Shown: positions 5,672-44,300 of the stretch, piece after piece
Layout of the letters: every line of letters starts with the position of its first letter
Numbering within the stretch: position 1 is the stretch's first letter
NCBI RefSeq assembly: GCF_030527965.1
Contig: NZ_JAUMZU010000001.1
Location: 86,141-150,140 of the forward strand
Direction of reading: 5' to 3'
Length of the DNA stretch: 64,000 bases
Source of the DNA: Neisseria sp.
GTDB taxonomy: Bacteria > Pseudomonadota > Gammaproteobacteria > Burkholderiales > Neisseriaceae
Made by a program: the position numbers and the translations under genes
Notes under the pieces: model-generated
The model's input: only the letters and a program-made list of their open reading frames with translations
Databases searched by the model: none
Told to the model about the DNA's origin: nothing

Positions 5672-7153
5672 ATGGTGATTTCTTGGACTCAGATATTGGT
5701 TTTCCTACACAGTATCGCCGCACTGGCCTGCATGGTGCGCGTGCTCTACAAGCAACGCAATACAGGCACGGCATTTGCCTGGCTGATTATCTTGTTTTTA
5801 TTTCCGCTTTTTGGCGTGATTGCTTATATGCTGGTGGGCGAGCCGCGGCTGGGCATGGCACGGGCTAAACGCTCTGAAGAAATGAACCGTTTTTACAGCC
5901 GATTTGTAGAAAACCATATGGCGGATGCCGATATGGAAGTTACTGATTCGATAAGCCGCCGTTATCAAGGCATTGCACAGGTAGCAGCCGACACCACCGG
6001 TTTGGGCGTAACCAAAAACAACGCCATCAAGCTGCTTTCCACTACCGATGAAATCGTGGATGCAATGTTGGCCGACATTCGCGCGGCACAACAATCCTGC
6101 CTGTTGGCATTTTATATTATCGAGCCGCAGGGCAAAATCGAGGCCTTACTCAACGCGGTGATTGACGCTTCCCAACGCGGTTTGAATTGTGTCATTCTCG
6201 CCGATGCGGTGGGCAGCGCATCGTTTTTCCATAGCACATGGCCGGACAAATTGAAAATTGCCGGCGTGGAAGTGCGGATGGCGTTACCGGTCGGCCCTTT
6301 GCGCACTTTATTTACCCGCAGCGATCTGCGCAACCATCGAAAAATTCTGCTGGTCGATAAAAAAATCGGCTATACCGGCAGCTTCAATCTGGTTGATCCG
6401 CGTTTTTTCAAACAAGGTTCGGGCGTGGGCGAATGGGTGGACGTGATGATGCGCTGCACAGGGCCGATGGTGTTGGAAATGTTGGCCGTGTTTTATGCGG
6501 ATGTGGCGGTGGAAGACGACGAAAGCCTGTCTGAAGTACAAAAATACCTGACCGACAGTTCCGGCATTATTACCGGTTTGTTGCCGCAGAAAAGGCAGGC
6601 GGGCAAAATTATGGCTCAGGTTATCCCTTCTGCGCCGGATCAGGCGCAACGGGTAATTTACGATACCATCGTCAGCATTATCTATGCGGCGACCCGGAAA
6701 ATTGTGATTACGACGCCTTATTTTGTTCCCGACGATCCCTTGCTGACAGCGCTAACCGTGGCGGCTAAACGCGGCGTAGACGTTACGCTGGTGCTTCCGG
6801 CCAAAGTCGATTCGCTGATGGTTCGTTATGCTTCGCAGGCGTATTACCCCATGTTGATGAAAGCGGGTGTTAAAATCGCTCTGTTTGAAGGCGGATTGCT
6901 GCATGCCAAAACACTTACCGTAGACAGCCGTTATACTTTGTTTGGCACGGTCAACATGGATATGCGCAGTTTCTTTCTGAATTTGGAAATCAGCCTGGCT
7001 ATTTATGATGAGAGTGTTACTGAAGAAGTTGCCGCTTTGCAGCAACGTTATTTGGATAATAGCCGCTATGTTACCGTCAGTGCTTGGCAGCAACGCAGCA
7101 AATGGTGGAGTTTGGTTGAAAACGGCGTCAGATTGCTTGCGCCTTTGTTGTAG
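5672..7153 (+). CDS. cls: Cardiolipin synthase (ClsA-type, two HKD motifs)
   Basis: N-terminal TM helices, HRKILLVD and HAKTLTVD HKD motifs; ATG 5672 with RBS aaagga preferred over track start 5567. Confidence 0.85.
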   Translation: MVISWTQILVFLHSIAALACMVRVLYKQRNTGTAFAWLIILFLFPLFGVIAYMLVGEPRLGMARAKRSEEMNRFYSRFVENHMADADMEVTDSISRRYQGIAQVAADTTGLGVTKNNAIKLLSTTDEIVDAMLADIRAAQQSCLLAFYIIEPQGKIEALLNAVIDASQRGLNCVILADAVGSASFFHSTWPDKLKIAGVEVRMALPVGPLRTLFTRSDLRNHRKILLVDKKIGYTGSFNLVDPRFFKQGSGVGEWVDVMMRCTGPMVLEMLAVFYADVAVEDDESLSEVQKYLTDSSGIITGLLPQKRQAGKIMAQVIPSAPDQAQRVIYDTIVSIIYAATRKIVITTPYFVPDDPLLTALTVAAKRGVDVTLVLPAKVDSLMVRYASQAYYPMLMKAGVKIALFEGGLLHAKTLTVDSRYTLFGTVNMDMRSFFLNLEISLAIYDESVTEEVAALQQRYLDNSRYVTVSAWQQRSKWWSLVENGVRLLAPLL

Positions 7154-7162
7154 CTTGGCGTG

Positions 7163-7345
7163 CTATATAAAAAAATCAGGTTTTTTGTATTCACACAAAA
7201 AACCTGATTTTTTTCCTTTCCGGCTGTAAGCGCCTTTGCCTTTTTTCGGCTTATGCGTTTTAGGTTGGAATAAATTGGATTTGACCAATGCTTTTAAGGC
7301 ATTATCTTGGATTTTGCCTTTATTGATTTCTACTTTTCGAGCCAT
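7163..7345 (-). CDS. arfA: Alternative ribosome-rescue factor ArfA
   Basis: 60 aa; GKIQDNALKALVKSNLFQPK..KKGKGAYSRKGK matches E. coli ArfA ([36 protein letters not shown]); RBS aaaggaaaa. Confidence 0.75.
   Translation of the reverse strand: MARKVEINKGKIQDNALKALVKSNLFQPKTHKPKKGKGAYSRKGKKSGFLCEYKKPDFFI
7169..7214. terminator. Bidirectional intrinsic terminator (20-bp perfect stem, A-run/T-run flanks) lying inside arfA 3' coding region and just after cls stop
   Basis: aaaaaaatcaggttttttgt / attcac / acaaaaaacctgattttttt. Confidence 0.75.
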
Positions 7346-7505
7346 GATTTTCCTTTAAGTTTTTCCAGCAATGCCTGTTTGAAAAAGGTTCAGACAGGCA
7401 TTGCCGTTGGAATCGGCATTATATGTAAAAAACGTTTGCTCGGCAAAAAGGCGGGGCTAAAAAAGAAAACGGATAAGTAAGAAGCGGCAAAAACGATACG
7501 TTTTA

Positions 7506-8276
7506 TTACCGGTCGGCCTGATAAAGCAATTCCGCCATAGCCGATAGGCGGCGCGTGTCGTTGCCCAGCCATTGTGCTTTTAGTTTGCGCAACCATAAAG
7601 CGGAGCGGTAGTTGCGGCGCAACCCGCTTTGCAGCGGGGCAGGCAGGCTTCGAAAATGGGCTTGCCAAATTGCAACTGCAGGTGCCAGATTTCCAGAGCG
7701 TTCGAGCCAGGTGGCGGCCGATTGCAGATAACACAGGTAATCGCGGCATTGGCATTGTATGAGCGGCATATATTGGGCAGGATCATCTTCAAAATCGATG
7801 AAAGCAATGCCGCCGCCGTTTTCCTGTCGGATCATATTGCGTATAAAAGCCTGACTAAGATATTGCCCCGCATGATGTACCGCGGCGATGGCACGCAAAC
7901 CTTCTGCAAATGCGTTAAGCTGGGACGATACTTTTTCTATTTCGTGCATGAAACCGTGTTCGCCGACGCTGCTGAACATAATGGCGTCATCCGTTTGCGC
8001 CAGAAGAATGGGTACGGGTACGCCGGCGGCACTCAATTCGCGCAGTCGCCTTGCTTCGGTAACCAGCGCCTCTTTCCCGCCAAGATTCGGTACGGGTTGC
8101 AAGGCGCCGAGACGGAAGATTTTGCTGAGCATGCCCAACAGAGCATAGCGCCATTGTGGCACGGTTTTGCCGGTTTTGCGCACCCAAACGGTTTCGCCGT
8201 TTTCTAAAATGTAGCGGGCAATGGTTTCGGTTTGTTCAGACAGGCATTGAGCCAATTGGTTTTGGTAGTCGGGCAT
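7506..8276 (-). CDS. Hypothetical protein, possible protein-kinase-like fold (Kdo/WaaP-like?) lacking canonical HxD; translationally coupled to upstream oxidase
   Basis: ATG 8276 overlaps TGA of upstream gene (TGATG); IDFEDD and H..G....N-like motifs only weakly kinase-like. Confidence 0.45.
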   Translation of the reverse strand: MPDYQNQLAQCLSEQTETIARYILENGETVWVRKTGKTVPQWRYALLGMLSKIFRLGALQPVPNLGGKEALVTEARRLRELSAAGVPVPILLAQTDDAIMFSSVGEHGFMHEIEKVSSQLNAFAEGLRAIAAVHHAGQYLSQAFIRNMIRQENGGGIAFIDFEDDPAQYMPLIQCQCRDYLCYLQSAATWLERSGNLAPAVAIWQAHFRSLPAPLQSGLRRNYRSALWLRKLKAQWLGNDTRRLSAMAELLYQADR

Positions 8277-9577
8277 CAGAACAGGTCTTTGATTTGGTGG
8301 AAAGCCGAAGCGGCTGCAAGGGCCGGTTTGCGCAACCACGGGCCGCCGGGGATATCCCGATGGAGGAGTTTTTCAAATTGTTGCAGGCGGGCGGGGTTGC
8401 CTAAAATCGCTTCGGCAACAGCCAAGCCCGCAATGCCGCTGAGCGCAACGCCGTGGCCGGAAAAGCCCTGCATAAAATAAATATTGCTGGGCAGTTGGCC
8501 GAAATTGGGAGCGAGGTTGGCGGAAACGTCGCATTCGCCGCCCCAAGCATAATCGATACGGGCATTTTCCAATTGGGGGAAAACCTTTAACATGTTTTTT
8601 CGTAGCGTGCGGATAATGTGCTTTTGGCTGCGAGGGAAACTGCTGTCTTTTCCGCCGAAAAGCAACCTGCCGTCGGCGCTGAGGCGGAAGTAATCAAGGA
8701 TGTAGCAGTTGTCGCAGACGGCCATGTTGTTGCGTATCAATTCTTTTGCCTGCTGACCTAAAGGTTCCGTAGCGATGATGAAGCTGCCGACCGGGATGAT
8801 TTTTCGGTCGACTTTGTGTAGGGCGGTGGCGCTGATTTCGCCGATGCGGCTGTTTACCGCCACAATAAGATGTTTACAATGAATATCGGCGGCAGGCGTG
8901 CTGACGATAAACCCTTTTTGCAGTCGTTGTATGCCGTTGCACGGAGTGTCTTCGTAGATTTTCAATCCGGCGGAAACAGCGGCATCGGCTAAGCCGAGCG
9001 TATACTTGAGCGGATTCAGATGGCCTGATTTCGGGTCGAACAGGGCGCCGATGTAGTGCTCGCTGGCAAGGGCTTGTTGTAGACGGGTTTTATTCCACAA
9101 TTCATAATGCGTATAGCCGTAGCGCTTGGCGGCACGGTCGTGCCAGCTAACCAGCTCTTTGAAATGATGAGGGCGGATGGCAGCGGTGGCATAGCCGTAT
9201 TGCCAATCGCAATCGATTTGAAATTGGTTGATTCTCTGCTCAACCAATGCCACCGCGTCCAAGGATTGCTGCCAAAACCATTGCGCTTGCGGCAGACCAA
9301 CTTGTTTTTCGATTTCAATCATGCCACAGGCATAGTCGCTGATCACTTGTCCGCCGTTGCGGCCGGATGCGCCCGAGCCGATGCGACCTGCTTCAATCAT
9401 TACTACTTCACGTCCGTGCTCAACCAAAGGCAGTGCCGCGCCCAAGCCAGCCAAGCCGCCGCCGATAATGCAGATTTCTACATTCATAGATGCTTGCAAA
9501 GAAGGGCGCGCGGGTGGAAGGGCGATGCTGGAAGTGTAATAAGAATCAGGGTGATGGAAAGGCTCGGTTTGCGGCAT
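8276..9577 (-). CDS. FAD-dependent oxidoreductase, gamma-glutamylputrescine oxidase (PuuB)/DadA-like family
   Basis: 433 aa; Rossmann IIGGGLAGLGAAL; N-terminal SYYTSS aligns with PuuB SSYYAAS; similarity along the length (ILDYFRLSADGRLLFGG, IYFMQGFSGHGV). Confidence 0.8.
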   Translation of the reverse strand: MPQTEPFHHPDSYYTSSIALPPARPSLQASMNVEICIIGGGLAGLGAALPLVEHGREVVMIEAGRIGSGASGRNGGQVISDYACGMIEIEKQVGLPQAQWFWQQSLDAVALVEQRINQFQIDCDWQYGYATAAIRPHHFKELVSWHDRAAKRYGYTHYELWNKTRLQQALASEHYIGALFDPKSGHLNPLKYTLGLADAAVSAGLKIYEDTPCNGIQRLQKGFIVSTPAADIHCKHLIVAVNSRIGEISATALHKVDRKIIPVGSFIIATEPLGQQAKELIRNNMAVCDNCYILDYFRLSADGRLLFGGKDSSFPRSQKHIIRTLRKNMLKVFPQLENARIDYAWGGECDVSANLAPNFGQLPSNIYFMQGFSGHGVALSGIAGLAVAEAILGNPARLQQFEKLLHRDIPGGPWLRKPALAAASAFHQIKDLF

Positions 9578-11875: not shown

Positions 11876-12118
11876 ATGATGAAAAATCTATTGATTGCCG
11901 CAACCTTGTTAACTCTTGCTGCATGCTCTAACACTTGGCACGGAGCTAAAGAAGACAGCCAAAGTCTGAAAGATCGTGGAGAACAAAGCTTGGAACGCGG
12001 AGGCGAAGCAGTTGAAAAAGGTTGGGACAAAACCAAAGATTTAGGGCGTACCGCCGTGGATAAAACCGGCCGTGCCTTAGAAAAAAGCGGCCAATATCTG
12101 CAAGAAAAGGCAGAATAA
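11876..12118 (+). CDS. Small lipoprotein (lipobox LAAC), CsbD/stress-protein-like KG-rich repeats
   Basis: MMKNLLIAATLLTLAACS signal peptidase II site; RBS cggaga; 80 aa. Confidence 0.55.
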   Translation: MMKNLLIAATLLTLAACSNTWHGAKEDSQSLKDRGEQSLERGGEAVEKGWDKTKDLGRTAVDKTGRALEKSGQYLQEKAE

Positions 12119-12350
12119 ACGCTTTATCCAATTAATCGGTTTCAATCAAAAGCCTGTCTGAAAATATTTAAGACAGGTTTTTTATAATCATTTGATTTTT
12201 AAATAAGAGCAATGTCTGCACAACCAGTCTGTTTGAAGGGCTAGCCTAGTTTTCCACGAAGTTGATTGAAGAATACGGAACAGAGTGTAAAGTAACTGCA
12301 TAAGATGAATATTAGCTTAGGCTATATAAATAATAAATAGAGGTAATATT

Positions 12351-12635
12351 ATGATAACTGTTGAGATAGTTAATACCATTTTTGGTCTTGTGGCTCTTGC
12401 CAACTCTGTTTTGGCCGGTATTATTCTTATTTTAAAAATGATGATTGGTAAATATTTAACAGAATATGAAAAGTTGACAGGATATCATGAGGGCTTTGAC
12501 AGATTAGTAAGAGAGAAAAATCGAACAGCTCTAATAATGAATATGTTCATTAAGTTATGGATGGTAACGATGTTGATTATGGGAGCATATGCATTGTTTT
12601 ACAAACCAGTGGTTGAATCAATTCAAGCGGGATGA
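12351..12635 (+). CDS. Hypothetical small membrane protein (2 predicted TM) in AT-rich islet
   Basis: 94 aa; region 12150-12900 markedly AT-rich relative to flanks; RBS agaggtaa. Confidence 0.4.
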   Translation: MITVEIVNTIFGLVALANSVLAGIILILKMMIGKYLTEYEKLTGYHEGFDRLVREKNRTALIMNMFIKLWMVTMLIMGAYALFYKPVVESIQAG

Positions 12636-12828
12636 ATGTAAATAGGATTTATAAATAAAATTATATAAAGTAGCAAATTATATTGATGGTGCGGATTTTT
12701 AAAATAGGAAAACTCAGACTTTTAATAAAGCACAATTATTTTAATGATATTATCAACCATATCTTTGTTCATTTTTCTGCGCCTACCTAAAAGAGGAATA
12801 ATCAAAAACCGCGAAAAATCCGAGATAA

Positions 12829-12860
12829 AAAAGGTGCTGCCAAATGGGAAGCACCTTTTT
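12829..12860. terminator. Bidirectional intrinsic terminator hairpin (aaaggtgct...agcaccttt) with A/T runs
   Basis: Stem aaaggtgct/agcaccttt, T-run downstream on both strands; 20 bp past lipoprotein gene stop (minus). Confidence 0.5.
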
Positions 12861-12878
12861 CTATTGATTTTTAAAATT

Positions 12879-13520
12879 TTAATGCAGCTCACGAATATCG
12901 TGCCAACCATTGTTGGTTTTGACCATGGTGGCGGTGTATTCTTGCGGTTCGGTCAGCTGTTTCTCAAAGTTTTCATTCGATTTCAGCAGTTTTTTCATCC
13001 ATTTTTCCGGTACCAATTCTGCTTGGTAGGATACTTTTGATACGGTCATGCCGTTTGACGGGGTCGGCTCGGTAAACCAGTTGATTTTTTTCACTTTCAG
13101 GCTGCCTGTGCATACCACCGGGCCTTGAGAATTGAAACGCAACATAGCGGCGCCTTTTTCGGTAAGCTGATAGCTTACGGTTTTTATTTCGGTGTCGCCT
13201 TGCTCTACGGATTTTTTATCTGCTTTGCGATAAATGCCTGCGTCGGTCAGAATTTCCATTTGTTCCATGGCTTCTTTATTAATGCGTTTACCTTCTGAAT
13301 TGCGGTCGGCAATAGACAGTTTAGGCTCGCCGACGAGGTTGTTACGCACCGGCTGGCCGGCAACATCTAAAATGGCGAGCGGCAGAGGCGTACATACGCC
13401 TTGCTCGGCGGCAAAGCTTTCGATGCCGTCTTTCAGGGCGGATTCGCTCGCTTGGTTTTCGTTGCCCGAGCAGGCAGCGAGCAAAAACACGGGTAGGGCG
13501 GCTAAAAGGGTTTTTTTCAT
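12879..13520 (-). CDS. Hypothetical lipoprotein
   Basis: MKKTLLAALPVFLLAACSG lipobox at ATG 13520 with RBS ggaga; track TTG-extended start 13583 rejected. Confidence 0.7.
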   Translation of the reverse strand: MKKTLLAALPVFLLAACSGNENQASESALKDGIESFAAEQGVCTPLPLAILDVAGQPVRNNLVGEPKLSIADRNSEGKRINKEAMEQMEILTDAGIYRKADKKSVEQGDTEIKTVSYQLTEKGAAMLRFNSQGPVVCTGSLKVKKINWFTEPTPSNGMTVSKVSYQAELVPEKWMKKLLKSNENFEKQLTEPQEYTATMVKTNNGWHDIRELH

Positions 13521-13633
13521 GCATTTCTCCGGAAAATTTTTCAATTCAGGCGTAAGAATAGTTTTTTTGGCCGCTTTCGACAAGGTTTTTTGCTACAATC
13601 GATTTTTTGTAAACACATATTTAAAGATATTTT

Positions 13634-13984
13634 ATGACCATATTATACGGTATTCCAAACTGCGATACAGTCAAAAAAGCCCGTGTTTGGCTGGCTGACA
13701 AGGGTATTGCTTTTGAATTTGTCGATTTCAAAAAACAGCCGCCGCAAGAAGCATTAATCCGGCAATGGTTGACACAGATTCCATTGGAAACCTTGTTGAA
13801 CAAGCGGGGAACGACTTGGCGCAAGCTAAACCCTGAAGAGCAGGCTGCAGCGGCCAATCCGGATGATGCCGTTCGCTTGATGGCTGAGCAACCGAGTGTT
13901 ATCAAACGGCCGGTTTTGTCGCATGAGGGTCGGTTTTACTGCGGATTTTCTGCTGATTCGTATCAGGCGGTTTTTAAGGATTAA
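13634..13984 (+). CDS. yffB: ArsC-family protein (YffB-like, Spx/ArsC fold)
   Basis: 116 aa; MTILYGIPNCDTVKKARVWL conserved N-terminal Cys motif of ArsC/YffB family. Confidence 0.8.
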   Translation: MTILYGIPNCDTVKKARVWLADKGIAFEFVDFKKQPPQEALIRQWLTQIPLETLLNKRGTTWRKLNPEEQAAAANPDDAVRLMAEQPSVIKRPVLSHEGRFYCGFSADSYQAVFKD

Positions 13985-14088
13985 GCATCTGGCATGCTGA
14001 ATAATGCCTGTCTGAAAACCATCAAACCGGATGTTAAGCCGGGGAAGGGTTTTCAGACAAGCATTGATTATGCGGGCCTAATTCTGAA

Positions 14089-14991
14089 TTATTCCTGCTC
14101 GCCTAAAAGTTGCTCGCGGGTCAGCAGTAAGACGAAGCCGTCGCCGCCGCTGGTTTCCAGCCAGGTGAACGGCAATTCAGGGTAGGCGCGCTCCAATTCT
14201 TCACGGTTGTGGCCGATTTCAACCAGTAAAACGCCTTTGGGATTAAGATAACGGGCGGCTTGCTGCAAGATTTGCCGAGTGGCGTCGAGCCCGTCGATGC
14301 CGCTGCCGAGCGCGAGCTCAGGCTCGTGCAAATACTCTTCGGGCAGGCTCTCAACCGATTCGGCATCGACATAGGGCGGGTTGGAAACGATTAAATCGTA
14401 GGTAGTATCGAGCCCTTCGAATAAATCGGTATGAATCAGGTTGATGCGCTCTTCCAGCCCGTAGCTTTCTACGTTTATGGCGGCTACCTCAAGGGCATCC
14501 AAGCTCAGGTCAACCGCATCAATGGCGGCATCGGGATAATAATGAGCCATTTGTATGGCGAGGCAGCCGCTGCCCGTGCATAAATCGAGTGCGCTGTGTA
14601 CCAGCTCGTCATATTCGATCCATGGGCGCAGCCGGTCGCCTAAAAGTTCGTAAATAAAAGAGCGCGGCACGATAACTCGTTCGTCAACATAAAAATCAAA
14701 TTCTCCCTGCCATGCTTGGTTGGTTAAATAAGCCACGGGCAAACGCTCTTTAACGCGCCGTTCGATAAGTTGCAAGACTTGTTCTTTTTCAGTTGGCAGC
14801 AATGCGGCGTCAAGATAGGGTTTCAACGTGTCTAGCGGCAGGTTGAGCGTATGCAAAATCAAATAAGCAGCCTCATCGTGCGCATTGTCGCTGCCGTGGC
14901 CGAAATAAAGACCGGCTTCGTTGAAACGGCTAACGGCAAAACGCAATAGGTCGCGCAAAGTGTTTAGATGGCGGGCGGCTTCTTTAAACAT
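14089..14991 (-). CDS. prmB: Ribosomal protein L3 glutamine N5-methyltransferase PrmB
   Basis: 300 aa; DLCTGSGCLAI SAM motif and NPPY catalytic motif. Confidence 0.9.
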   Translation of the reverse strand: MFKEAARHLNTLRDLLRFAVSRFNEAGLYFGHGSDNAHDEAAYLILHTLNLPLDTLKPYLDAALLPTEKEQVLQLIERRVKERLPVAYLTNQAWQGEFDFYVDERVIVPRSFIYELLGDRLRPWIEYDELVHSALDLCTGSGCLAIQMAHYYPDAAIDAVDLSLDALEVAAINVESYGLEERINLIHTDLFEGLDTTYDLIVSNPPYVDAESVESLPEEYLHEPELALGSGIDGLDATRQILQQAARYLNPKGVLLVEIGHNREELERAYPELPFTWLETSGGDGFVLLLTREQLLGEQE

Positions 14992-15056
14992 GGGTTGGTT
15001 CTCTGATATTAAGAAAAAGATTCGAGCGGATTATACAACAGCTCGGGTGTGCCGAT

Positions 15057-15082
15057 GCCTGTCTGAAAATATTCAGACAGGC
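15057..15082. repeat. DUS inverted pair in prmB/ABC divergent intergenic region
   Basis: gcctgtctgaa aata ttcagacaggc. Confidence 0.6.
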
Positions 15083-17310: not shown

Positions 17311-17565
17311 AGTTTATAATCAGGCTGTCTGAAAGCCTCGAACAGCGTGATTATCCATTCGTAAAGAAAGAACCTTTATGAAACCCTTTACTTCCCTTCT
17401 AACCGCCGCCTTATTATCCGCCGCCAGCCTGAGCGCCTGCGGCGGGTCGGAGAAACATATGAGCATTCAAGAGCAGACTGAAAAACGTTTCCAACTCAAT
17501 CCTCACCCTACAAAAGCCTACCGCATTAAAATCAAAATAAATGATGCGCCCGGGCCTTTGAAACT
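17311..17565 (+). repeat. Direct repeat copy 1 (~255 bp, ~94% identical to 18139-18393): promoter/5'UTR + first ~62 codons of lipoprotein gene
   Basis: By-eye alignment of the two segments; includes variant DUS caggctgtctgaaa. Confidence 0.8.
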
Positions 17566-18079
17566 TGTCAGTTCAAGGATTCAATATATAGCAGACAATT
17601 GTTCATACATTATTAACAATGTGGAAGGTGCAAGCGCTAATCCTGAAAAATTCATAAATGTTGAATTTCAACAAACTACTTTAAATGAATATAAAGCCAT
17701 AATTTATTTAGATAGAATGCAAAATGAAGATTATTTCGGAACAGGAATTTGTCAATGGAAAGCAGGTGGATTCAATCTAGGTTTCCAAGCCACAGGCAAA
17801 CCAGAAGAAACTACTTTTTCAATAGGGGGAATTCTAGATAGTTCTCTACTTGTAGATGAAAGAAGTAAAAAAAACTCTCTTTTATTCAAACTAACTGAAA
17901 CTAGATTCTACTGGAAAAAAGGATATCCATATTATAGAAATGAAGATGGTTCAATATACGAAAGCAACACTATGGCCGACTCTGGCATACAATCTGAATC
18001 ACTAAATAAATATTATACTGACCAACAACGTAAAAATTTATTCAATATAACTGTTACTCTTGAGGAAATGAAGTCATGA
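17378..18079 (+). CDS. Lipoprotein paralog 1; candidate immunity protein
   Basis: MKPFTSLLTAALLSAASLSACGG lipobox; C-terminal domain homologous but diverged from paralog 2 (shared DEDYFG.G.C.W, GYPYYRN-DGS-Y motifs); C-terminal 500 nt very AT-rich. Confidence 0.7.
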   Translation: MKPFTSLLTAALLSAASLSACGGSEKHMSIQEQTEKRFQLNPHPTKAYRIKIKINDAPGPLKLVSSRIQYIADNCSYIINNVEGASANPEKFINVEFQQTTLNEYKAIIYLDRMQNEDYFGTGICQWKAGGFNLGFQATGKPEETTFSIGGILDSSLLVDERSKKNSLLFKLTETRFYWKKGYPYYRNEDGSIYESNTMADSGIQSESLNKYYTDQQRKNLFNITVTLEEMKS

Positions 18080-18138
18080 CTACAAGACAACAAAATGCTC
18101 GCTTCCTATCAAAAGCCTTATTTATCGAACGGATTGAT

Positions 18139-18393
18139 AATCAGGCTGTCTGAAAATCTCGAATAGCGTGATTATCCATTCGTAAAGAAAGAGCCTTTAT
18201 GAAACCCTTTACTTCCCTTCTAACCGCAGCCTTATTATCCGCCGCTAGCCTAAGCGCCTGCGGCGGGTCGGAGAACCGTATGAGCATTCAAGAGCAGACT
18301 GAAAAGCGTTTCCAACTCAATCCACACCCCACAAAAGCCTACCGCATTAAAATCAAAATCAACGATGCACCCGGGCCTTTGAAGCCAGTAGGA
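18139..18393 (+). repeat. Direct repeat copy 2 (see 17311-17565)
   Basis: Near-identical 5' module of lipoprotein paralog 2. Confidence 0.8.
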
Positions 18394-18855
18394 AAGATGT
18401 CTGTAGGTTATATCGCTGAAAATTGCTCATATACTATTGCTAAGTTTGCCGGAGCAAAGGCTAAACCTGAAAAAGATGTTTATACCGAAGTCAAACAGAT
18501 AGGGGCAGATGAATATGAAAGTACCATTTATCTTGATGCCATGCGAGATGAAGATTATTTTGGGCAAGGAGTATGCCACTGGCAGGCATATAGTTTTGCT
18601 GTAGGATTTAAAGCGACGGGAAAGCCAAATGAAACAAACTTTGGGATAGGAGAAATTTTAGAAGAGATTTTATCTAAGAAGACTCGAACAATATATTTTT
18701 GGAAAAGAGGTTACCCTTACTATAGAAATGATGATGGTTCCGTCTATAACAAGGATGATATGTATGACTCTGGATATGATTCTTTAAACGATTACATTGC
18801 TCAAAGACGTAATGAATTATTTACGATGACTGTTCAAATTGAGGAGATTGAATAA
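18199..18855 (+). CDS. Lipoprotein paralog 2; candidate immunity protein, translationally coupled to lipase gene
   Basis: Same signal peptide/lipobox; stop TAA overlaps ATG of next gene (TAATG) with GAGGAG RBS inside its 3' end. Confidence 0.75.
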   Translation: MKPFTSLLTAALLSAASLSACGGSENRMSIQEQTEKRFQLNPHPTKAYRIKIKINDAPGPLKPVGKMSVGYIAENCSYTIAKFAGAKAKPEKDVYTEVKQIGADEYESTIYLDAMRDEDYFGQGVCHWQAYSFAVGFKATGKPNETNFGIGEILEEILSKKTRTIYFWKRGYPYYRNDDGSVYNKDDMYDSGYDSLNDYIAQRRNELFTMTVQIEEIE

Positions 18856-20204
18856 TGTCCCAGCTAAATAGACAACAATACGCAGATCTTTCAGAAGATT
18901 CTTATGAAAAAAGAAATGCTGATGAACATAAAAAAATTCTTATTGGCAAGCATTATTATAAAGTTCTTGCTACTTGGGGTAATCCTAAGACAGATTATCA
19001 GGGTGCTGTTTATCAAGATGTCGAAACCAATACTATTGTCGCAGCACATAGAGGAACGGAATCGCTTAAAGATGGAATAATTGACCTGAAAATGGTGTTT
19101 CAACAGGTTAACAGTCAGTTGGAAGATGCAACCACACTAACACTGATGGCTTTAAGAAAAGCAGAGGAGTTTCATAAAAAGCGTCCTGATATGCCCAAAC
19201 CCAAAGTAGAGCAAACCGGTCATTCACTAGGCGGTTCTCATACCGAAATACAGGTTCATCTTTTTGAAGAAAAAGGGATTTTGATGGAAGGGGTAACCTT
19301 TAACGGTTACGGAGCGGCAGGCCTTCACGGCGTTCCCGAAAAAGACAATGGTCGATTAACGGCTTATGTGAAGGCTTCCGATGTAGTATCCGCTGCAAAC
19401 CCCCATTACGGCAGAGTGGTGGTGTTGGCTACAGAGAAAGACCTCGCTCCGTTGAAAGCATACGGCTATAACAATGAGCGCGATACTCCGACACCTACGG
19501 CAATCAGCGCCAGCTTGACCAATACATTGCCAGCCCACGGGATAAAAAATTTTACCGGCTCCGATTCAATCCTATCCCGACTCAACTACCGTCATGCCCG
19601 CTCACTGGCGGACGATAATGAAAAGATGATTCAAGATTTTCGCAGTGATATAAAAGCCCTCAAAAACGGCCTCTCTCATGGCGTTAATGAAGCCAATAAA
19701 GCTTACGACATCATGCGCTCTATCCCCACTTCTTCTGAAATATTTATGCGGGAAATCCAGAAAAGCGTTATTCCGCCATTGATGGAAAATAACACCCAAA
19801 CCGCCCCTGCATTGGGCCTCGCCGATATGCCTGAAAAGGCACGGCAACTTTGCGAAGAGTGTAAGACGCATCTAGTTGATTTTCATAAAGGAAAAAACAT
19901 TGCTGTCAGTGAAGACAAGCTGGATAGAATGGCGGCTGCGGCCGGTGTGCAGGCTTATCGGGAAGGCTTTCCGGGTATTCAGGCGCTTGCCATTCATGAT
20001 GGCGAAGTCAGATTCGGATACCGCTATCCTCACGAGCAGGCACTTTACGGTTTGGTAAACGCCACCCAAGCAGCCGCGACACCGGTTGAAGAAAGCGTGG
20101 TTCAATCAAGGCAGGCAGAGCAGGAATTGGCACAGAAGGCGCAACAACGTGAAATGGCAATGGCCGAATACCATTCGCAATCGCGCGGGAGAAGTATTTC
20201 TTAG
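18855..20204 (+). CDS. Class-3 lipase (alpha/beta hydrolase, GHSLGG nucleophile elbow) without signal peptide; candidate secreted phospholipase effector (Tle/X-Tfe-like)
   Basis: AAHRGTE ... (58 aa) ... GHSLGGS matches lipase_3 RGT/GHSLGG spacing; no Sec/Tat signal; Q/A-rich C-terminal tail. Confidence 0.7.
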   Translation: MSQLNRQQYADLSEDSYEKRNADEHKKILIGKHYYKVLATWGNPKTDYQGAVYQDVETNTIVAAHRGTESLKDGIIDLKMVFQQVNSQLEDATTLTLMALRKAEEFHKKRPDMPKPKVEQTGHSLGGSHTEIQVHLFEEKGILMEGVTFNGYGAAGLHGVPEKDNGRLTAYVKASDVVSAANPHYGRVVVLATEKDLAPLKAYGYNNERDTPTPTAISASLTNTLPAHGIKNFTGSDSILSRLNYRHARSLADDNEKMIQDFRSDIKALKNGLSHGVNEANKAYDIMRSIPTSSEIFMREIQKSVIPPLMENNTQTAPALGLADMPEKARQLCEECKTHLVDFHKGKNIAVSEDKLDRMAAAAGVQAYREGFPGIQALAIHDGEVRFGYRYPHEQALYGLVNATQAAATPVEESVVQSRQAEQELAQKAQQREMAMAEYHSQSRGRSIS

Positions 20205-20235
20205 ATCGGTTATCGGTTGGAAACATTATTAATGA

Positions 20236-20261
20236 TGCCTGTCTGAAAATATTCAGGCAGG
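20236..20261. terminator. DUS (variant) inverted pair hairpin after lipase gene
   Basis: gcctgtctgaa aata ttcaggcaggc (second half is gcctgcctgaa variant). Confidence 0.55.
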
Positions 20262-20299
20262 CTATTATCTAGTCTTAATTTATCAAACAATAAAATATT

Positions 20300-22003
20300 A
20301 TGAGCACCCGTAATCAATTTATTATGACCATAATCATGCTGCTGGCAGCTGTTGTTGCCGGCTGCTATCTTTCGGGCTTTATTTTGCTGCAATGGCTGGG
20401 ATTGAACAACACACCGTTAGGGTTAACCACTTATTTCCAATATTTCAGCAAGCTGCATCTCCCGCGGGTTGCCGCTTATGCTTTACAAATTAAAACGTCA
20501 GGTGCCGTCGGCTTTGGTTTGCCTTTGCTGCTCTGGCTGATTCTGCTGATTCCGTTGTGGAAAAACCGGGCACCCAGCTTGCACGGCGAGGCGCGTTTTT
20601 CCAATCTTGTCGATTTGACTAAGGCAGGCTTTTTGAAACAAAGCGACACCAGCCTTGTGGTAGGCAAGCAAAACGGCAAATTGCTGTATTACAACGGCCA
20701 GCAGTTTGCTCTTCTGGCAGCACCGACCCGTTCGGGGAAGGGCGTGGGGATTGTGGTGCCTAATTTATTGCATTATCAAGGTTCGGTTGTTGTGTTGGAT
20801 ATTAAACAGGAAAACTTCAATCTGACCAGCGGCTACCGCAAAGAAGTGTTGAGGCAGGAAGTTTACCTGTTTAATCCGTTTGCCGAAGACGGGCGCACCC
20901 ATCGCTGGAACCCGTTTACCTATGTTTCAAAGGATAAAAACCAGCGCATATCGGATTTGATGTCGATTGCGGCGATGCTGTATCCGGACGGAGACAGTAA
21001 AGACAAGTTTTGGGTGGCTCAGGCAAGAAATGCGTTTTTGGCTTTTTCGCTTTATTTGTTTGAAGAGTATGAGCACAGGAAAGGCTTCATTCCTGAGCTA
21101 AATCAATCGACTAATGGTACGGCTCCTTGCACCTTAGGCAAGCTTTACCGGCTTTCATCCGGCAATGGCGAAGAATTGAAAAATTACTTCCAAGAGCTGG
21201 CTCAAGCAGAATTTCTAAGCGAAGCCTGTAAAACTGCTTTTTCGGGGCTGGTTTCTCAAGAGAAAGAAACTTTCGGCTCTATCATGGGTACATTCAAAGA
21301 GCCGTTGAATCCTTGGCTTAACCCTCTGGTTGATGCAGCCACTTCGGCAGACGATTTTTTCTTGACCGATGTCCGCAAAAAGAAAATGACCGTCTACATC
21401 GGTATTTTGCCGAACAAACTGGCTGAATCAAGGGTAATCGTTAACTTGTTTTTCTCCCAGCTGATTAACCAAAACACCAAACAACTTCCGCAAGACAATC
21501 CTGCTCTGAAGCACCAATGTCTGTTGCTGATGGACGAATTTACCAGCATCGGTAGGGTGGACATCATTGCCCATGCCGTGAGCTATATGGCAGGCTATAA
21601 CATCCGATTATTTCCGATTATTCAATCGGTTGCGCAACTGGATGCGGTTTACGGCAAAGAATATGCCCGCACCATCATTACCAACCACGCCTTGCAGATA
21701 CTGTATACCCCGCGAGAGCAGCAGGATGCGAACGAATACTCAGAAATGCTGGGCTATACGACGGTTCGGAAACAGAACGTGAGCAAAGGGCGGGAGCGCA
21801 GCGTATCGGAGAGTGAAGAGAGAAGAGCGCTGATGCTGCCGCAGGAATTGAAGGCAATGAGCCAAGATAACGAGATTATGATTTACGAGGGGATGGCATA
21901 CCCTGCTAAGGTTGGTAAGATTCGTTATTACAATGATAAAACGTTTACTTCGAGGTTGAGGAAAGCGGTGATGGTAAAATCGTTGGCGGTGAGTAAAGAA
22001 TAA
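20300..22003 (+). CDS. virD4: Type IV secretion coupling protein, VirD4/TraG family
   Basis: 567 aa; two N-terminal TM helices; P-loop LLAAPTRSGKGVGIVVPNLL; Walker B CLLLMDEFTSIG; IIQSVAQLDAVYG motif; all characteristic of T4CPs. Confidence 0.85.
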   Translation: MSTRNQFIMTIIMLLAAVVAGCYLSGFILLQWLGLNNTPLGLTTYFQYFSKLHLPRVAAYALQIKTSGAVGFGLPLLLWLILLIPLWKNRAPSLHGEARFSNLVDLTKAGFLKQSDTSLVVGKQNGKLLYYNGQQFALLAAPTRSGKGVGIVVPNLLHYQGSVVVLDIKQENFNLTSGYRKEVLRQEVYLFNPFAEDGRTHRWNPFTYVSKDKNQRISDLMSIAAMLYPDGDSKDKFWVAQARNAFLAFSLYLFEEYEHRKGFIPELNQSTNGTAPCTLGKLYRLSSGNGEELKNYFQELAQAEFLSEACKTAFSGLVSQEKETFGSIMGTFKEPLNPWLNPLVDAATSADDFFLTDVRKKKMTVYIGILPNKLAESRVIVNLFFSQLINQNTKQLPQDNPALKHQCLLLMDEFTSIGRVDIIAHAVSYMAGYNIRLFPIIQSVAQLDAVYGKEYARTIITNHALQILYTPREQQDANEYSEMLGYTTVRKQNVSKGRERSVSESEERRALMLPQELKAMSQDNEIMIYEGMAYPAKVGKIRYYNDKTFTSRLRKAVMVKSLAVSKE

Positions 22004-22077
22004 TTGAGCACAATAATAGAAAATTGCCACATGATCCGTCAAACCGATTTTTGTTAATTGAATAACGCTGTAAAAAA

Positions 22078-22103
22078 GCCTGCCTGAAAATATTCAGGCA
22101 GGC
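22078..22103. terminator. Variant-DUS (gcctgcctgaa) perfect inverted pair hairpin between virD4-like gene and purM (convergent)
   Basis: gcctgcctgaa aata ttcaggcaggc + T-run. Confidence 0.6.
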
Positions 22104-22123
22104 TTTCTTATTATTAAAAATGA

Positions 22124-23161
22124 TTACGCTATTTGCGTTTGATGCTCGTCGCCGATGCGCTCGCGGATTGTGCCCAAGCGGTAAACCGTTTCGCCTTGTC
22201 CTGCTAAAAATGCTTGCAAGGCGTCGGCTTCTTCTGCTGATGCAATCAGCACCATGCCGATGCCGCAGTTGAAGGTGCGGTACATTTCTTGCGGCGCTAC
22301 GTTGCCGGCTTCTTGCAGCCAACGGAACAATTTGGGCAATGCCCATGCGCCGGCGTCGATTTGTGCAACGGTGTTTTGCGGTAAAACACGCGGTACGTTT
22401 TCGGTGATGCCGCCGCCGGTGATGTGTGCCATGCCTTTGATGGTAAATTGTTTCAACGCGGCCAGAATGGGTTTCACATAAAGGCGTGTGGGGGCGATGA
22501 CGGCTTGGCGCAGAGTTTTGTTGCCGTCAAACGGGGCGTCTAAATCGGGGTTGTCACGCTCGAGAATTTTGCGTATCAGAGAATAGCCGTTGGAGTGGGC
22601 GCCGTTGGAAGCCAAGCCGAGCACGATATCGCCGGCGGCGATGCTGCGGCCGTTGATGACTTTGTCTTTTTCCACCACGCCTACGGCGAAGCCTGCCAAA
22701 TCATATTCGCCTTCGGGATACATGCCGGGCATTTCGGCGGTTTCACCGCCGATTAGGGCGCAAGCGGAAGCTTCGCAACCTTGCGCGATGCCTTTGATTA
22801 CATCGGTGGCACGCGCTACATCGAGCTTGCCGCAGGCAAAATAATCCAAGAAAAATAACGGCTCTGCGCCTTGTACCAGGATGTCGTTCACACTCATGGC
22901 AACGAGGTCGATGCCGACGGTGTCGTGCAAGTCCCAATCAAAGGCCAGTTTTAATTTGGTGCCAACGCCGTCGGTGCCGCTGACCAGCACGGGATTTTGG
23001 TATTTTTTGCTGATTTCCACCAAGGCGCCGAAGCCGCCTAAGTCGCCCAGCACTTCGGGGCGCATGGTGCGTTTGGCAAACGGTTTGATGTTTTCGACCA
23101 ATTGGTCGCCGGCATCGATATCGACTCCGGCATCGCGGTAGCTCAGGGATGGGTTGCTCAT
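22124..23161 (-). CDS. purM: Phosphoribosylformylglycinamidine cyclo-ligase PurM
   Basis: 345 aa; canonical AIR synthase sequence ([19 protein letters not shown]-like) throughout. Confidence 0.95.
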
Positions 23162-24867: not shown

Positions 24868-24945
24868 TAATCCGATAATATGGATTTGATAAAAGCCTGT
24901 CTGAAAAAATTCAGGCAGGCTTTTATCATTGTGCTGCGTTCCGCA

Positions 24946-41067: not shown

Positions 41068-41222
41068 AAAGCCTGATTTGTTGCAAAATTTCGGGCAGGC
41101 CGGATGAAAAAGGCCGATTTCAACATAAATCATTAGGCGGGTAGGCGGACTATCGTTTAAAATGGGGTAAATTTTTAACAACGATTACGCACATTACCAA
41201 TAATAAACGTTAGGTGTTACTC

Positions 41223-41891
41223 ATGCGTTCACAACAAAAAGGTTTTACCTTAGTCGAATTGATGGTGGTGGTTGCCATATTCGCCATCATATCCCTTATT
41301 GCCTATCCCAATATGACCGAATGGATTGCCGAGCGACGCATTGCCAATAAAGCGGAGCAAATGGCGAATATGTTCCGCCTCGCAAGAGGAGAAGCGGTAC
41401 GGATTGGCGTGCCAGTTTATATCTGTCCCGTAAATCTTTCTGATGCCGGCAGCCCTAATTTTTATTGCCAAACTTCATCTCCTGAAGGTTATGCAGCGTT
41501 TGCAGATGTCAACAAGGATAATAAATTTACCAAAGATGTTGATCTTCCTTTAAGAACAGTAGTATTGAATACGCCTTCACGAGCAACTATGCGTTATCTA
41601 TTTGATAATTTAAGCGCCAATTACAGTATTATCAGAAGCGGTAGTGAACAAGCACGTGCAGCAGGATATTTGCCTAACGGATCATTTCTAAGAGCTAACT
41701 ATGCTACTGACGGTACGATTACTACAAATCCCGCAAACAGTATCATCAAAATTGTTTTGACAGATATAGAACCAAAGGACAAGGAAAAGAGCAGAGCACA
41801 AGTGATGTTGTTGGATAGTAGTGGCAGGGTTCAGTTTTGCAAAAAATCAGAAATTGCGGATGCTGCTAATAAAAAATGCACTTTCCAATAA
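41223..41891 (+). CDS. pilH: Type IV pilus minor pilin FimT/PilH (GspH-like)
   Basis: Prepilin leader MRSQQKG|FTLVELMVV; track start 41214 is GTG. Confidence 0.75.
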   Translation: MRSQQKGFTLVELMVVVAIFAIISLIAYPNMTEWIAERRIANKAEQMANMFRLARGEAVRIGVPVYICPVNLSDAGSPNFYCQTSSPEGYAAFADVNKDNKFTKDVDLPLRTVVLNTPSRATMRYLFDNLSANYSIIRSGSEQARAAGYLPNGSFLRANYATDGTITTNPANSIIKIVLTDIEPKDKEKSRAQVMLLDSSGRVQFCKKSEIADAANKKCTFQ

Positions 41892-41947
41892 ATATAGAAT
41901 TGAAAATTTAATCTATTATTCATAATTTGAATGAGAGAGTTTAAACA

Positions 41948-42616
41948 ATGAAAAGAAAAATCAATCAATTAAAAACATATACGGGCAGATTCACCTTGAT
42001 TCGCAAACAGCAAGGCTCAACTTTAATTGAGGTTCTGGTTTCCATGCTGATGTTGGGTCTCGGCGTGTTGGTTTTACTAGCAACTCAATTGAAAACTGTG
42101 GCAGGCGTAAGAGAAGCGGAAAATCAGACAATTGTTGCTCAGGCCACGCAAAATCTGATTGAAGGTATGTTGGCCAACCCTAAACTCAAGTTAACCAAAT
42201 TGAACACAGCTAATATTAGTGGTGGAATTGAATGGAATAGTAAGAATTATGATATTTATAGCGGAAATATCAATAGCGTAAATCCTGATTCCTGCACTGG
42301 ATTGACAAGTAAAAACGATCTTAATAAAACCAATTTGGCACTGGAGCAAATGTGTGACTTCAGAAAAGCTCTAAAGACAAATTTACCGGATGCAACCTTC
42401 CATATTAATATCTGCCGGGATAGTAGTAATCAAAAACCAACGGTCTCCTCAGGAGGAAATGTTGATTGGCATTGTGTGGCAACGACAAAAGATACACCCT
42501 ATACTGTGGTAAAAATTTTATGGCAAATGGACACTGAAAACGAAGAAAATGCTAAAGGGGTTACGGTTGTCGATGGTAAAGCGGTTTACACTTATCAGGC
42601 GCGAGTTACGGATTAA
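41948..42616 (+). CDS. pilV: Type IV pilus minor pilin PilV (PilI)
   Basis: Class III signal ...KQQG|STLIEVLV with unusually long leader; operon position. Confidence 0.65.
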   Translation: MKRKINQLKTYTGRFTLIRKQQGSTLIEVLVSMLMLGLGVLVLLATQLKTVAGVREAENQTIVAQATQNLIEGMLANPKLKLTKLNTANISGGIEWNSKNYDIYSGNINSVNPDSCTGLTSKNDLNKTNLALEQMCDFRKALKTNLPDATFHINICRDSSNQKPTVSSGGNVDWHCVATTKDTPYTVVKILWQMDTENEENAKGVTVVDGKAVYTYQARVTD

Positions 42617-42620
42617 TGAG

Positions 42621-43709: not shown

Positions 43710-44278
43710 TTATGGCTCTACCGAAAAAGCAGCAAGGATTCTCCCTTTTCATGGTGCTGGTAATGATGCTGGTTATTGCATTTTTAGTTATAGCAGCCAC
43801 TCAATCCTATAATACCGAAATGCGGATTAGTAGTAATGACGCCGATAGAAAAAGTGCTTTTTCACTTGCCGAAGCAGCATTAAGGCAAGGGGAGTCTGAA
43901 ATTGGTAAATTTTCAAATGAAACATTTAGCGCCAATTGCACCGACGGATTATGCGTTCAATCTGAACAGGAAACTAAAAGTGAAATCACTGCTGCAGGTA
44001 ATTCTTTGAATCTTCAATTAGAAGCTTGCGGTGCAGGATGCAAGGGAATTAATGCATGGGAACGCTCCGGTGTTTTCCAAACTGTCGGTAAAGAATATAA
44101 AGTTCCAGATAATCTGTCTGCTAAACCTGCGCGTTATATTATCGAAGCTCTTGGCTCCAATACTGAATCAGATGGAACGATAAGGGTAATCTACCGTGTT
44201 ACGGCTCGTGCATGGGGTGAAAATCCGAATACTACGGTAACCCTACAATCGTATGTTGAAGGCGTATATAACCAGTAA
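43694..44278 (+). CDS. pilK: Type IV pilus minor pilin PilX/PilK-like
   Basis: KQQG|FSLFMVLVMMLV hydrophobic N-terminus; 16-nt overlap with pilW. Confidence 0.6.
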   Translation: MRKPLIMALPKKQQGFSLFMVLVMMLVIAFLVIAATQSYNTEMRISSNDADRKSAFSLAEAALRQGESEIGKFSNETFSANCTDGLCVQSEQETKSEITAAGNSLNLQLEACGAGCKGINAWERSGVFQTVGKEYKVPDNLSAKPARYIIEALGSNTESDGTIRVIYRVTARAWGENPNTTVTLQSYVEGVYNQ

Positions 44279-44300
44279 GCAGCTATAGGATTAAAAGAAT

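Follow-up and report, generated by a model that had tools for sequence, protein, structure and literature searches.

The window analysed here, a stretch of 64,000 nucleotides, is a segment of a Neisseriaceae chromosome from a metagenome-assembled genome (MAG; locus tags Q4A84_) of an uncultured Neisseria. It carries virD4, a gene for a type IV coupling protein (T4CP), on a contig of 201,165 bp. A preliminary description of the window had presented this gene as an orphan VirD4/TraG coupling protein of 567 aa, placed between a lipase-immunity module and purM with no relaxase or type IV secretion system (T4SS) genes in the 64 kb, and had taken its compact length to fit effector translocation rather than conjugation. 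Our analysis supports an assignment to the VirD4s of the X-T4SS, the Xanthomonadales-like, bacteria-killing T4SS described in Xanthomonas citri and Stenotrophomonas maltophilia, and reveals that the gene is an orphan in its immediate surroundings only. The gene and the parts of its product are as follows.

20300-22003, forward strand: virD4, X-T4SS type IV coupling protein of 567 aa (MDO4640177.1 / WP_303086971.1)
20306-20560, forward strand: N-terminal membrane anchor, in which a short loop joins two predicted transmembrane (TM) helices at aa 3-33 and 61-87 (AlphaFold2 (AF2) model, predicted local distance difference test (pLDDT) 77-88)
20723-20746, forward strand: Walker A motif (P-loop) PTRSGKGV, aa 142-149, invariant in a 25-sequence alignment
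20936-21346, forward strand: predicted all-alpha domain (AAD) at about aa 213-349, the insert for substrate recognition (AF2 model, Pfam TrwB_AAD_bind)
21518-21541, forward strand: Walker B motif CLLLMDEF, aa 407-414, in columns that are (nearly) invariant in the same alignment

These data confirm an intact type IV coupling protein at 20300-22003. The open reading frame (ORF) begins with ATG and is the longest at its site, and its product matches the Pfam family T4SS-DNA_transf (PF02534) with E=1.4e-110 and 370.8 bits (cut-off 20.1) from position 4 to 461 of the 468-position profile, with further matches to TraG-D_C and to TrwB_AAD_bind (PF10412, 82 bits). An alignment of 25 members of the X-T4SS clade has 190 invariant columns. 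The ratio of nonsynonymous to synonymous substitution rates (dN/dS) against Neisseria relatives is 0.07-0.09, indicating that virD4 is under purifying selection, which argues against a pseudogene.

The AF2 model, built from 25 homologues, predicts the canonical plan of two TM helices, a nucleotide-binding domain (NBD) and an AAD; the two-TM anchor is part of the canonical architecture of X-T4SS VirD4s (Sgro 2019, PMC6536674). The TM call consists of AF2 helices lying in hydrophobic sequence. An all-alpha insertion had been proposed as a check on the identity of the protein, and the model does contain a seven-helix insert at aa 213-349, with zero strands, between the predicted NBD strands 187-191 and 363-367. 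Within this segment pLDDT reaches 79-86 at aa 241-260 and 281-330 and is lower in the rest. A Foldseek search with the model returned Cagbeta and TrwB as top matches, the model being too weak for finer inference.

The closest database proteins are VirD4s of N. flavescens (81% identity) and Neisseria sp. CCUG12390 (79%); after those of Formosimonas come the VirD4s of Lysobacter, Xanthomonas vesicatoria, Variovorax and Xylophilus, which are 63-65% identical across 96-99% of the length. Among 72,556 plasmids, the best T4CP, from an Iodobacter plasmid, is 48% identical, and IncP TraG, IncX TaxB, Ti VirD4 and the T4CP of the N. gonorrhoeae conjugative plasmid are 27-32% identical in that search; over the columns used for the tree, the same four references stand at 28-33%. 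Size separates the two groups as the preliminary description had argued: the listed full-length homologues of the X-T4SS clade are mostly of 551-583 aa, with a few fragments and forms of 811-824 aa, against 603-766 aa for the conjugative references by their annotated coordinates.

Phylogenetic analysis agrees with these values. In a neighbour-joining tree (distance-based, not maximum likelihood; 458 NBD and AAD columns, 200 bootstraps), the window VirD4 belongs to a Neisseriaceae clade with 100% bootstrap, which is nested with VirD4s from Formosimonas, Xanthomonadales and Comamonadaceae in an X-T4SS clade, also with 100%. The sister of this clade is formed by Paraburkholderia and Iodobacter-plasmid proteins, and the conjugative references fall far outside, so that the comparison with conjugative TraG proposed earlier places the window protein apart from them. 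The genera of the inner clade are those reported to carry X-T4SSs, with Neisseria explicitly included (Sgro et al. 2019, PMC6536674). The Iodobacter plasmid T4CP was considered as an X-T4SS member and rejected: it has 766 aa, is encoded in a virB operon on a relaxase-bearing plasmid and belongs to the sister clade. Other VirD4s of the sister clade, 52-55% identical to ours, are encoded on chromosomes of Paraburkholderia, Burkholderia and Caballeronia (loci L019-L037), and in many Paraburkholderia the gene lies at the end of compact virB1-virB11 operons.

The gonococcal genetic island (GGI) has a coupling protein of the F type. The F-type model TIGR02759 (TraD_Ftype) gives the window protein 49 bits against a cut-off of 521, and the other NCBIfam conjugative cut-offs are missed as well (IncP TraG 207/674 bits, Ti VirD4 242/681, Ti TraG 88/686). 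As no NCBIfam model passes its cut-off for this protein, X-T4SS VirD4s receive the generic name 'conjugative DNA transfer family protein'; the two lipoproteins and the effector encoded upstream match no NCBIfam model. Because the tree, the identities, the missed conjugative cut-offs, the AAD and a neighbouring gene with an XVIPCD point the same way, the window protein is supported as an X-T4SS-type VirD4 rather than a conjugative TraG or TraD, and effector translocation, the role favoured by the preliminary description, is therefore the best reading.

The virD4 gene is the last of a 4.8-kb module located between an ABC-2 transporter operon and purM, in surroundings that match those first described: a lipase-like gene and two small lipoprotein genes upstream, purM downstream. 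The remaining features of the module and its downstream border are listed here.

17378-18079, forward strand: X-Tfi-like lipoprotein 1, a putative immunity protein of 233 aa with signal peptide and lipobox LSAC (MDO4640174.1 = Q4A84_00495, annotated as hypothetical)
18199-18855, forward strand: X-Tfi-like lipoprotein 2, a putative immunity protein of 218 aa with signal peptide and LSAC lipobox (MDO4640175.1 = Q4A84_00500)
18855-20204, forward strand: X-Tfe-type effector of 449 aa with an N-terminal lipase-motif domain and a C-terminal XVIPCD (MDO4640176.1, NCBI name 'lipase')
19770-20201, forward strand: XVIPCD of the effector, the putative VirD4-interacting secretion signal, aa 306-449 (about 140 residues; Pfam, tail profile)
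20230-20263, no strand: terminator-like hairpin GCCTGTCTGAAAATATTCAGGCAGGC of inverted DNA uptake sequences (DUS), between the effector gene and virD4
22071-22104, no strand: second copy of the terminator-like inverted-DUS hairpin, 68 nt past the virD4 stop and shared with the convergent purM
22124-23161, reverse strand: purM

The order is thus putative immunity, putative immunity, effector and virD4, and the module is an accessory insertion in which the three upstream genes belong with virD4. Its GC content is 0.43, against 0.49 for the window. Relatives of PurM at 90% identity or more are found in a different synteny (AI-2E transporter / purM / secF), and no comparable empty site was found among them.

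The C-terminal part of the effector links the module to VirD4. An exhaustive HMMER search with this tail against 1.84 billion representatives returned 30 homologues in proteins of 88-559 aa, all 30 aligned at or near their own C-terminus. A match to the Pfam family XVIPCD (PF20410) with E<=0.01 is found in 16 of 28 tail-sharing proteins (the effector and 27 homologues; best E 9.1e-8), whose N-terminal domains are mutually unrelated and include Lipase_3, Mbeg1-like, a DUF6782 metallopeptidase and DUF6973. When compared with the PDB, the tail profile matches the C-terminal domain of 9P3H (E=1.3e-6) and residues 221-334 of the 337 in 7R6S (E=4.8e-5), which is TfcB, a bactericidal T4SS effector of S. 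maltophilia with a C-terminal domain that acts in recognition and translocation (PMC11253643). Only the profile search succeeded here; phmmer with the single effector tail gave zero PDB matches. The effector ends in a Q-rich, arginine-containing stretch, ...QSRQAEQELAQKAQQREMAMAEYHSQSRGRSIS; XVIPCDs, which bind the AAD of VirD4, are described as rich in glutamine at their very C-terminus, with a basic residue close to it (Oka et al. 2021, PMC8740702). Judged from these sequence features, the C-terminal module of about 120 aa is an XVIPCD, common to diverse N-terminal domains. The N-terminal part of the effector contains the motif GHSLGG, a nucleophile elbow, with a weak match to DUF6792, and the region of the motif shows weak similarity to a class-3 lipase (6A0W, E=0.65).

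Both lipoproteins lack a Pfam or NCBIfam family and are paralogous to each other, and the stop codon of the second overlaps the start codon of the effector gene. At two further loci (L018 and L039), the ORFs found immediately upstream of homologous lipases share 52-54% identity with lipoprotein 2, and lipoprotein homologues precede XVIPCD lipases in Neisseria virB loci. Their position and lipoprotein signals suggest an immunity role for both. A block of 250 nt at 17313-17562, covering the upstream region and the 5' end of the first lipoprotein gene, is repeated at 18134-18383 with 94% identity in the same position relative to the second, which indicates that the putative immunity gene was recently duplicated in tandem and that the 3' halves have diverged since. 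The locus of Neisseria sp. CCUG12390 (L001) has arrays of related ORFs. At its positions 6075-8455 and 12458-15035, three paralogous immunity-like lipoprotein genes stand in an array, with spacer ORFs of 79-82 aa that match only the N-terminus of the lipase effector in the latter and a 35-residue effector-like remnant in the former. These arrays look like leftovers of repeated recombination of effector/immunity cassettes, or like an accumulation of orphan immunity genes.

The window as a whole is recognisable as Neisseriaceae chromosome. The core GCCTGTCTGAA of the TG-wadDUS dialect occurs in 60 copies in the 64 kb and the canonical DUS GCCGTCTGAA in none, and the window DnaB shares a 90% cluster with DnaB of N. 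wadsworthii (cluster look-ups were made by exact sequence). Inverted-DUS palindromes GCCTGYCTGAAAATATTCAGRCAGGC occur five times, at 100-125, 15057-15082, 20237-20262, 22078-22103 and 24895-24920, two of them bracketing virD4. The 34-nt hairpins that flank the gene were considered as marks of a mobile cassette and rejected, the same palindrome being found five times in the window; each is an ordinary Neisseria terminator-like element.

A Pfam scan covered 55 of the 56 non-overlapping window ORFs of at least 90 aa, leaving out one 101-aa ORF antisense to an ABC ATPase gene, and found only housekeeping functions and a type IV pilus minor-pilin cluster. No VirB, relaxase, integrase, transposase or mobilisation family was present among the 55 ORFs (oriT was not searched), and no other tra gene or flanking tRNA was found in the 64 kb. 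In a tblastn search with nine VirB proteins of a related Neisseria locus (VirB1, B2, B3, B4 (C-terminal part), B7, B8, B9, B10 and B11), matches in the window were limited to the four genes of the module. The coupling protein of 567 aa therefore does stand in the window without relaxase or T4SS genes, as first described. It also lies outside conjugative and integrative conjugative element (ICE) TraG in the tree, with no decayed ICE nearby and a dN/dS of about 0.07-0.09.

A different picture emerged from the rest of the assembly, where a search for virB genes had been proposed. The following proteins, on other contigs, come from the same assembly as the window, either by the Q4A84_ prefix or by being bracketed by consecutive accessions tagged Q4A84_.

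121,645-bp contig: VirB10 (MDO4640702.1, the accession before the second VirD4)
121,645-bp contig: second VirD4, 203 aa, annotated 'partial' and cut by the contig end (MDO4640703.1)
59,248-bp contig: VirB11 (MDO4641825.1), in a cluster at >=90% identity with N. oralis VirB11
59,248-bp contig: XVIPCD lipase of 442 aa directly after VirB11 (MDO4641826.1 = Q4A84_09060)
28,181-bp, 43,082-bp and 113,304-bp contigs: same-tail proteins Q4A84_10410, Q4A84_09800 and Q4A84_03715, respectively

Since VirB10, VirB11 and a second virD4 are encoded in the same assembly, the window gene is an orphan only locally. The proposed search did find virB10 and virB11, and with them the orphan status given in the preliminary description no longer holds for the genome. 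The window virD4 is an extra, unlinked copy in a genome that has at least virB10, virB11 and an in-locus virD4 after virB10. With the window effector, five proteins of the MAG share the tail, the other four being Q4A84_09060, Q4A84_10410, Q4A84_09800 and Q4A84_03715. The first of these is a full-length paralogue of the window effector at 53% identity, and the last 34 residues of the two differ at two positions only. Compared with the window copy, the second VirD4 differs at 14 of the first 42 residues, all within aa 3-42, and is identical at 160 of 161 residues over aa 43-203. A 5' difference followed by near-identity up to the contig end is the pattern of an assembler break inside a repeated gene.

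Related loci in other Neisseria put this arrangement in context. Neisseria sp. CCUG12390 has a single virD4, inside a locus with the order virB4-3-2-1 / virB7-8-9-10 / three lipoproteins and a lipase-XVIPCD / virD4 / lipoproteins and a lipase-XVIPCD / virB11, and the window module resembles the middle section of a locus of this kind. These relatives encode VirB1, B2, B3, B4, B7, B8, B9, B10 and B11; their long VirB7 has 149 aa and their VirB8 328 aa. Fragmented X-T4SS loci with a variable position of virD4 have already been published for Neisseria (Sgro et al. 2019, PMC6536674).

Additional virD4 genes outside the virB loci are not limited to our MAG. N. flavescens CNF, an isolate, carries one virD4 in its virB locus (L012) and another, unlinked, between aroA and metG (L006), with an ORF bearing an XVIPCD-like C-terminus about 2.5 kb downstream of the latter, an arrangement also seen at loci L002-L005. 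The bin.14 MAG has the same two loci (L007 in-locus, L011 unlinked). In Neisseria sp. Z2-81, a 198-aa ORF, an effector homologue and virD4 follow argG and a HAD hydrolase gene (L038), and a short contig carries another virD4 (L008). In HMSC06F02, two kinds of virD4 fragment are present. The tree makes sister groups of the unlinked and in-locus N. flavescens copies and places the window copy elsewhere, so that the window gene is not orthologous to the unlinked N. flavescens copy, and their insertion sites differ. Separate branching together with three different insertion sites points to independent relocations.

Between the two N. flavescens paralogues, synonymous sites are saturated and the proteins are 87-100% identical over most 30-residue bins, which indicates that both copies have long been kept, under purifying selection. 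Lower values are limited to the TM region (73-83%), aa 241-270 inside the AAD (56%) and about 55 residues near the C-terminus (80-84%). Among all Neisseria VirD4 copies, aa 241-300 of the AAD are the most variable stretch. Positive selection on the AAD patch aa 236-300 was considered and rejected, as its dN/dS of about 0.2 is relaxed yet purifying, with dS saturated in many comparisons.

Two observations on these loci stand apart from the question of copy number. In N. flavescens CD-NF3 (L010, 14179-15191) and CNF (L012, 13733-14745 and 4189-4487), virB11 and virB3 are each recovered in two adjacent or overlapping tblastn pieces, which suggests frameshifts, either sequencing errors or an inactivation of the machine in some strains. 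Neisseria-type X-T4SS sequences are also filed under unrelated taxa, namely a MAG of 'Candidatus Nanosyncoccus nanoralicus' (L018, CAUUHT010000006.1), a MAG of 'Hoylesella saccharolytica' and 'Jeotgalibaca porci' (the further records being P0026 and P0521); these are probably binning or contamination errors.

Taken together, we consider it probable (about 0.8) that the ORF at 20300-22003 encodes a functional VirD4 coupling ATPase of a bacteria-killing X-T4SS in an uncultured Neisseria, present as a second copy next to a toxin/immunity module. By analogy with work on X. citri and S. maltophilia (PMC6536674, PMC8740702, PMC6759196), VirD4 would be anchored in the inner membrane by its two TM helices. 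For the adjacent lipase, and for no fewer than four further proteins of the genome with the same tail, its AAD would bind the XVIPCD at the folded N-terminal part of that domain. Hydrolysis of ATP at the Walker A/B site would then pass the toxin on to a VirB channel with genes on other contigs, from which it may be injected into neighbouring Gram-negative cells, killing them, and the periplasm-facing lipoproteins would protect the producer and its kin.

Several points weigh against this interpretation. The effector reaches 21.5 bits (E=3.7e-4) with Pfam XVIPCD, under the gathering cut-off of 24.9, and its assignment as a lipase draws on weak similarities together with the motif and the name given by NCBI. 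Mean pLDDT in the AF2 model is only 62, and the prediction of the NBD core (aa 386-463) is poor. A terminator-like DUS hairpin separates the effector gene from virD4, and the search for a sigma-70 promoter of the latter gave no good candidate. The second virD4 copy is seen for aa 1-203 only and, the source being a MAG, the co-occurrence of all these genes in one cell depends on binning and on consecutive accession numbers.

The hairpin and the negative promoter search would also suit a redundant or decaying duplicate. In that case a segment of the virB locus with immunity genes, effector and virD4 would have been copied to another site, where nothing but the toxin/immunity pair counts, and the in-locus virD4 would serve the machine. 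The other copy of the MAG does occupy the canonical position after virB10, and with 160 of 161 identical residues over aa 43-203 the two copies look functionally interchangeable. We regard this as unlikely, though it deserves more weight than the other alternatives: the window ORF is intact with all catalytic motifs, its dN/dS of 0.07-0.09 reflects long-term constraint on the virD4 of this lineage, both N. flavescens copies are conserved in protein despite saturated synonymous sites, and unlinked copies stand at three different chromosomal sites in different Neisseria. A further possibility is that strain mixing or a chimeric join in the metagenome has created the window copy or the apparent two-copy state, and that a single cell has one virD4, either in the virB locus or beside purM. 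The second copy is indeed a 203-aa fragment at a contig end in a MAG, and related contigs are clearly mis-binned, such as L018 in the Nanosyncoccus MAG. This is nevertheless very improbable, since the two copies differ in their 5' ends (14 of the first 42 residues) and in their upstream genes (lipase versus VirB10), and the window contig continues past virD4 into housekeeping genes that are native, with DUS hairpins of the native dialect on either side. The repeats near virD4, of 34 nt, were judged too short to mislead a typical assembler, and in an isolate, N. flavescens CNF, virD4 is present both in the locus (L012) and unlinked to it (L006).

Least probable of all, and close to dismissed by the evidence on clade and context, is the coupling protein of a conjugative element that would recruit a relaxase-DNA complex, be it left over from an ICE or integrated plasmid that has decayed, or the partner of a GGI-like system for DNA secretion. 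The generic 'conjugative DNA transfer' name given by Pfam and NCBI would fit it, as would the GC of the module below its surroundings (0.43 vs 0.49) and the 4,201 of the best 5,000 plasmid matches that lie on plasmids typed as conjugative. However, identity is 27-32% to IncP TraG, Ti VirD4 and the N. gonorrhoeae plasmid T4CP against 63-84% within the X-T4SS clade, a split of 99-100% bootstrap separates VirD4 from the conjugative proteins, and the curated cut-offs are far off (207/674 bits for IncP TraG, 88/686 for Ti TraG and 49/521 for F-type TraD). The scans of the 64 kb yielded no relaxase, no integrase, no further tra gene and no flanking tRNA, and the adjoining gene bears a signal for protein secretion.

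A more speculative proposal concerns the recurring second copies. Some X-T4SSs of this genus might run on two coupling proteins, an in-locus virD4 and an unlinked 'plug-in' virD4 that moves together with effector-like genes (in the window, an effector/immunity cassette) and has reached no fewer than three chromosomal sites; we offer this as a tentative idea that is more doubtful than not. The paralogues differ mainly in the first TM helix (our MAG) or in AAD aa 241-270 (N. flavescens) and so could be alternative receptors, which could partition or widen the effector repertoire of one channel, or dock differently on VirB10. In the literature searched, we found no account of an antibacterial T4SS in which paralogous T4CPs divide the labour in this way, nor of a second unlinked virD4 beside effector-like genes at several sites, and the review of Sgro 2019 (PMC6536674) makes no mention of 'two virD4' or 'paralog'. 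The recurring second, unlinked virD4 beside effector-like genes is a modest but real lead.

Two other parts of the window merit a brief record. A sharp low-GC patch at 12000-13600 (0.34 vs about 0.49) holds two ORFs without a Pfam family (12351-12635, forward strand, and 12879-13583, reverse strand) and may be another small accessory insertion. Directly after dnaB, at 41214-44747, lies a type IV pilus minor-pilin operon with a GC of about 0.39, whose members include GspH/FimT-like, PilV/W/X-like and ComP-type DUS-receptor pilins; a ComP from a species of the wadDUS dialect could inform on DUS specificity.

Through these findings, a coupling protein that seemed to have no machine becomes recognisable as part of an interbacterial weapon that is already known, here from a Neisseria lineage that has been little sampled. 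Generic names ('conjugative DNA transfer family protein', 'lipase', 'hypothetical') mask an X-T4SS module of toxin, immunity and receptor genes, and the practical lesson is that T4CPs encoded beside XVIPCD genes should be read as antibacterial and not conjugative. The recurring unlinked virD4 copies of Neisseria also offer a natural system for the choice of the AAD among XVIPCD effectors and for the interchangeability of receptors in one T4SS.

Among known systems, the window protein is a further member of the published X-T4SS, for which recognition of the XVIPCD by the AAD has been published too (PMC8740702). It shares a clade of 100% bootstrap, a size class and the TM-NBD-AAD plan with the X-T4SS VirD4s of X. 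citri and S. maltophilia (Souza 2015; PMC6536674; PMC6759196; PMC8740702), and is 64% identical over the full length, and 68% over the tree columns, to VirD4 of X. vesicatoria (557 aa against 567 aa). XVIPCD toxins and lipoprotein immunity genes as neighbours are a further likeness to Xanthomonas and Stenotrophomonas. In those genera, however, virD4 is present once, directly upstream of virB7 and within a single operon-like locus (PMC6536674), whereas the window gene is a second copy with no vir gene within at least 20 kb upstream and 42 kb downstream. The systems of X. citri and S. maltophilia are the ones with demonstrated function.

The closest relatives, with 78-81% identity, come from commensal Neisseria whose X-T4SS loci are listed in Table 1 of PMC6536674 (N. 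flavescens SK114, N. mucosa C102 and others), and they share split loci, virD4 between virB10 and virB11, and the same cassettes of lipoproteins and lipase-XVIPCD. The review of these loci describes a virD4 position that varies within or beside the virB segments (PMC6536674); in the window MAG, N. flavescens CNF, bin.14 and Z2-81, an additional virD4 is located in a housekeeping region beside effector-like genes. Conjugative T4CPs (R388 TrwB, IncP TraG, pTi VirD4 and IncX TaxB) belong to the same superfamily and fold, TrwB being matched by Foldseek with E of about 1e-7, and share the logic of a hexameric ATPase, anchored in the membrane, whose AAD selects the substrates. Unlike them, the window VirD4 has 27-33% identity to the group, a separate clade, a length 36-118 aa below the references and no relaxase context, with the XVIPCD protein domain as substrate signal in place of the relaxosome. 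The best match among solved structures is Cagbeta of Helicobacter pylori (Cag5, 8DOL), a VirD4 that also translocates effectors (sequence E=1.2e-47, fold E=3.5e-17). Its identity to the window VirD4 is about 26-29%, the AAD region being the least similar and failing to align, and Cagbeta serves other effectors by another recognition, that of CagA and partner proteins, in delivery to eukaryotic target cells.

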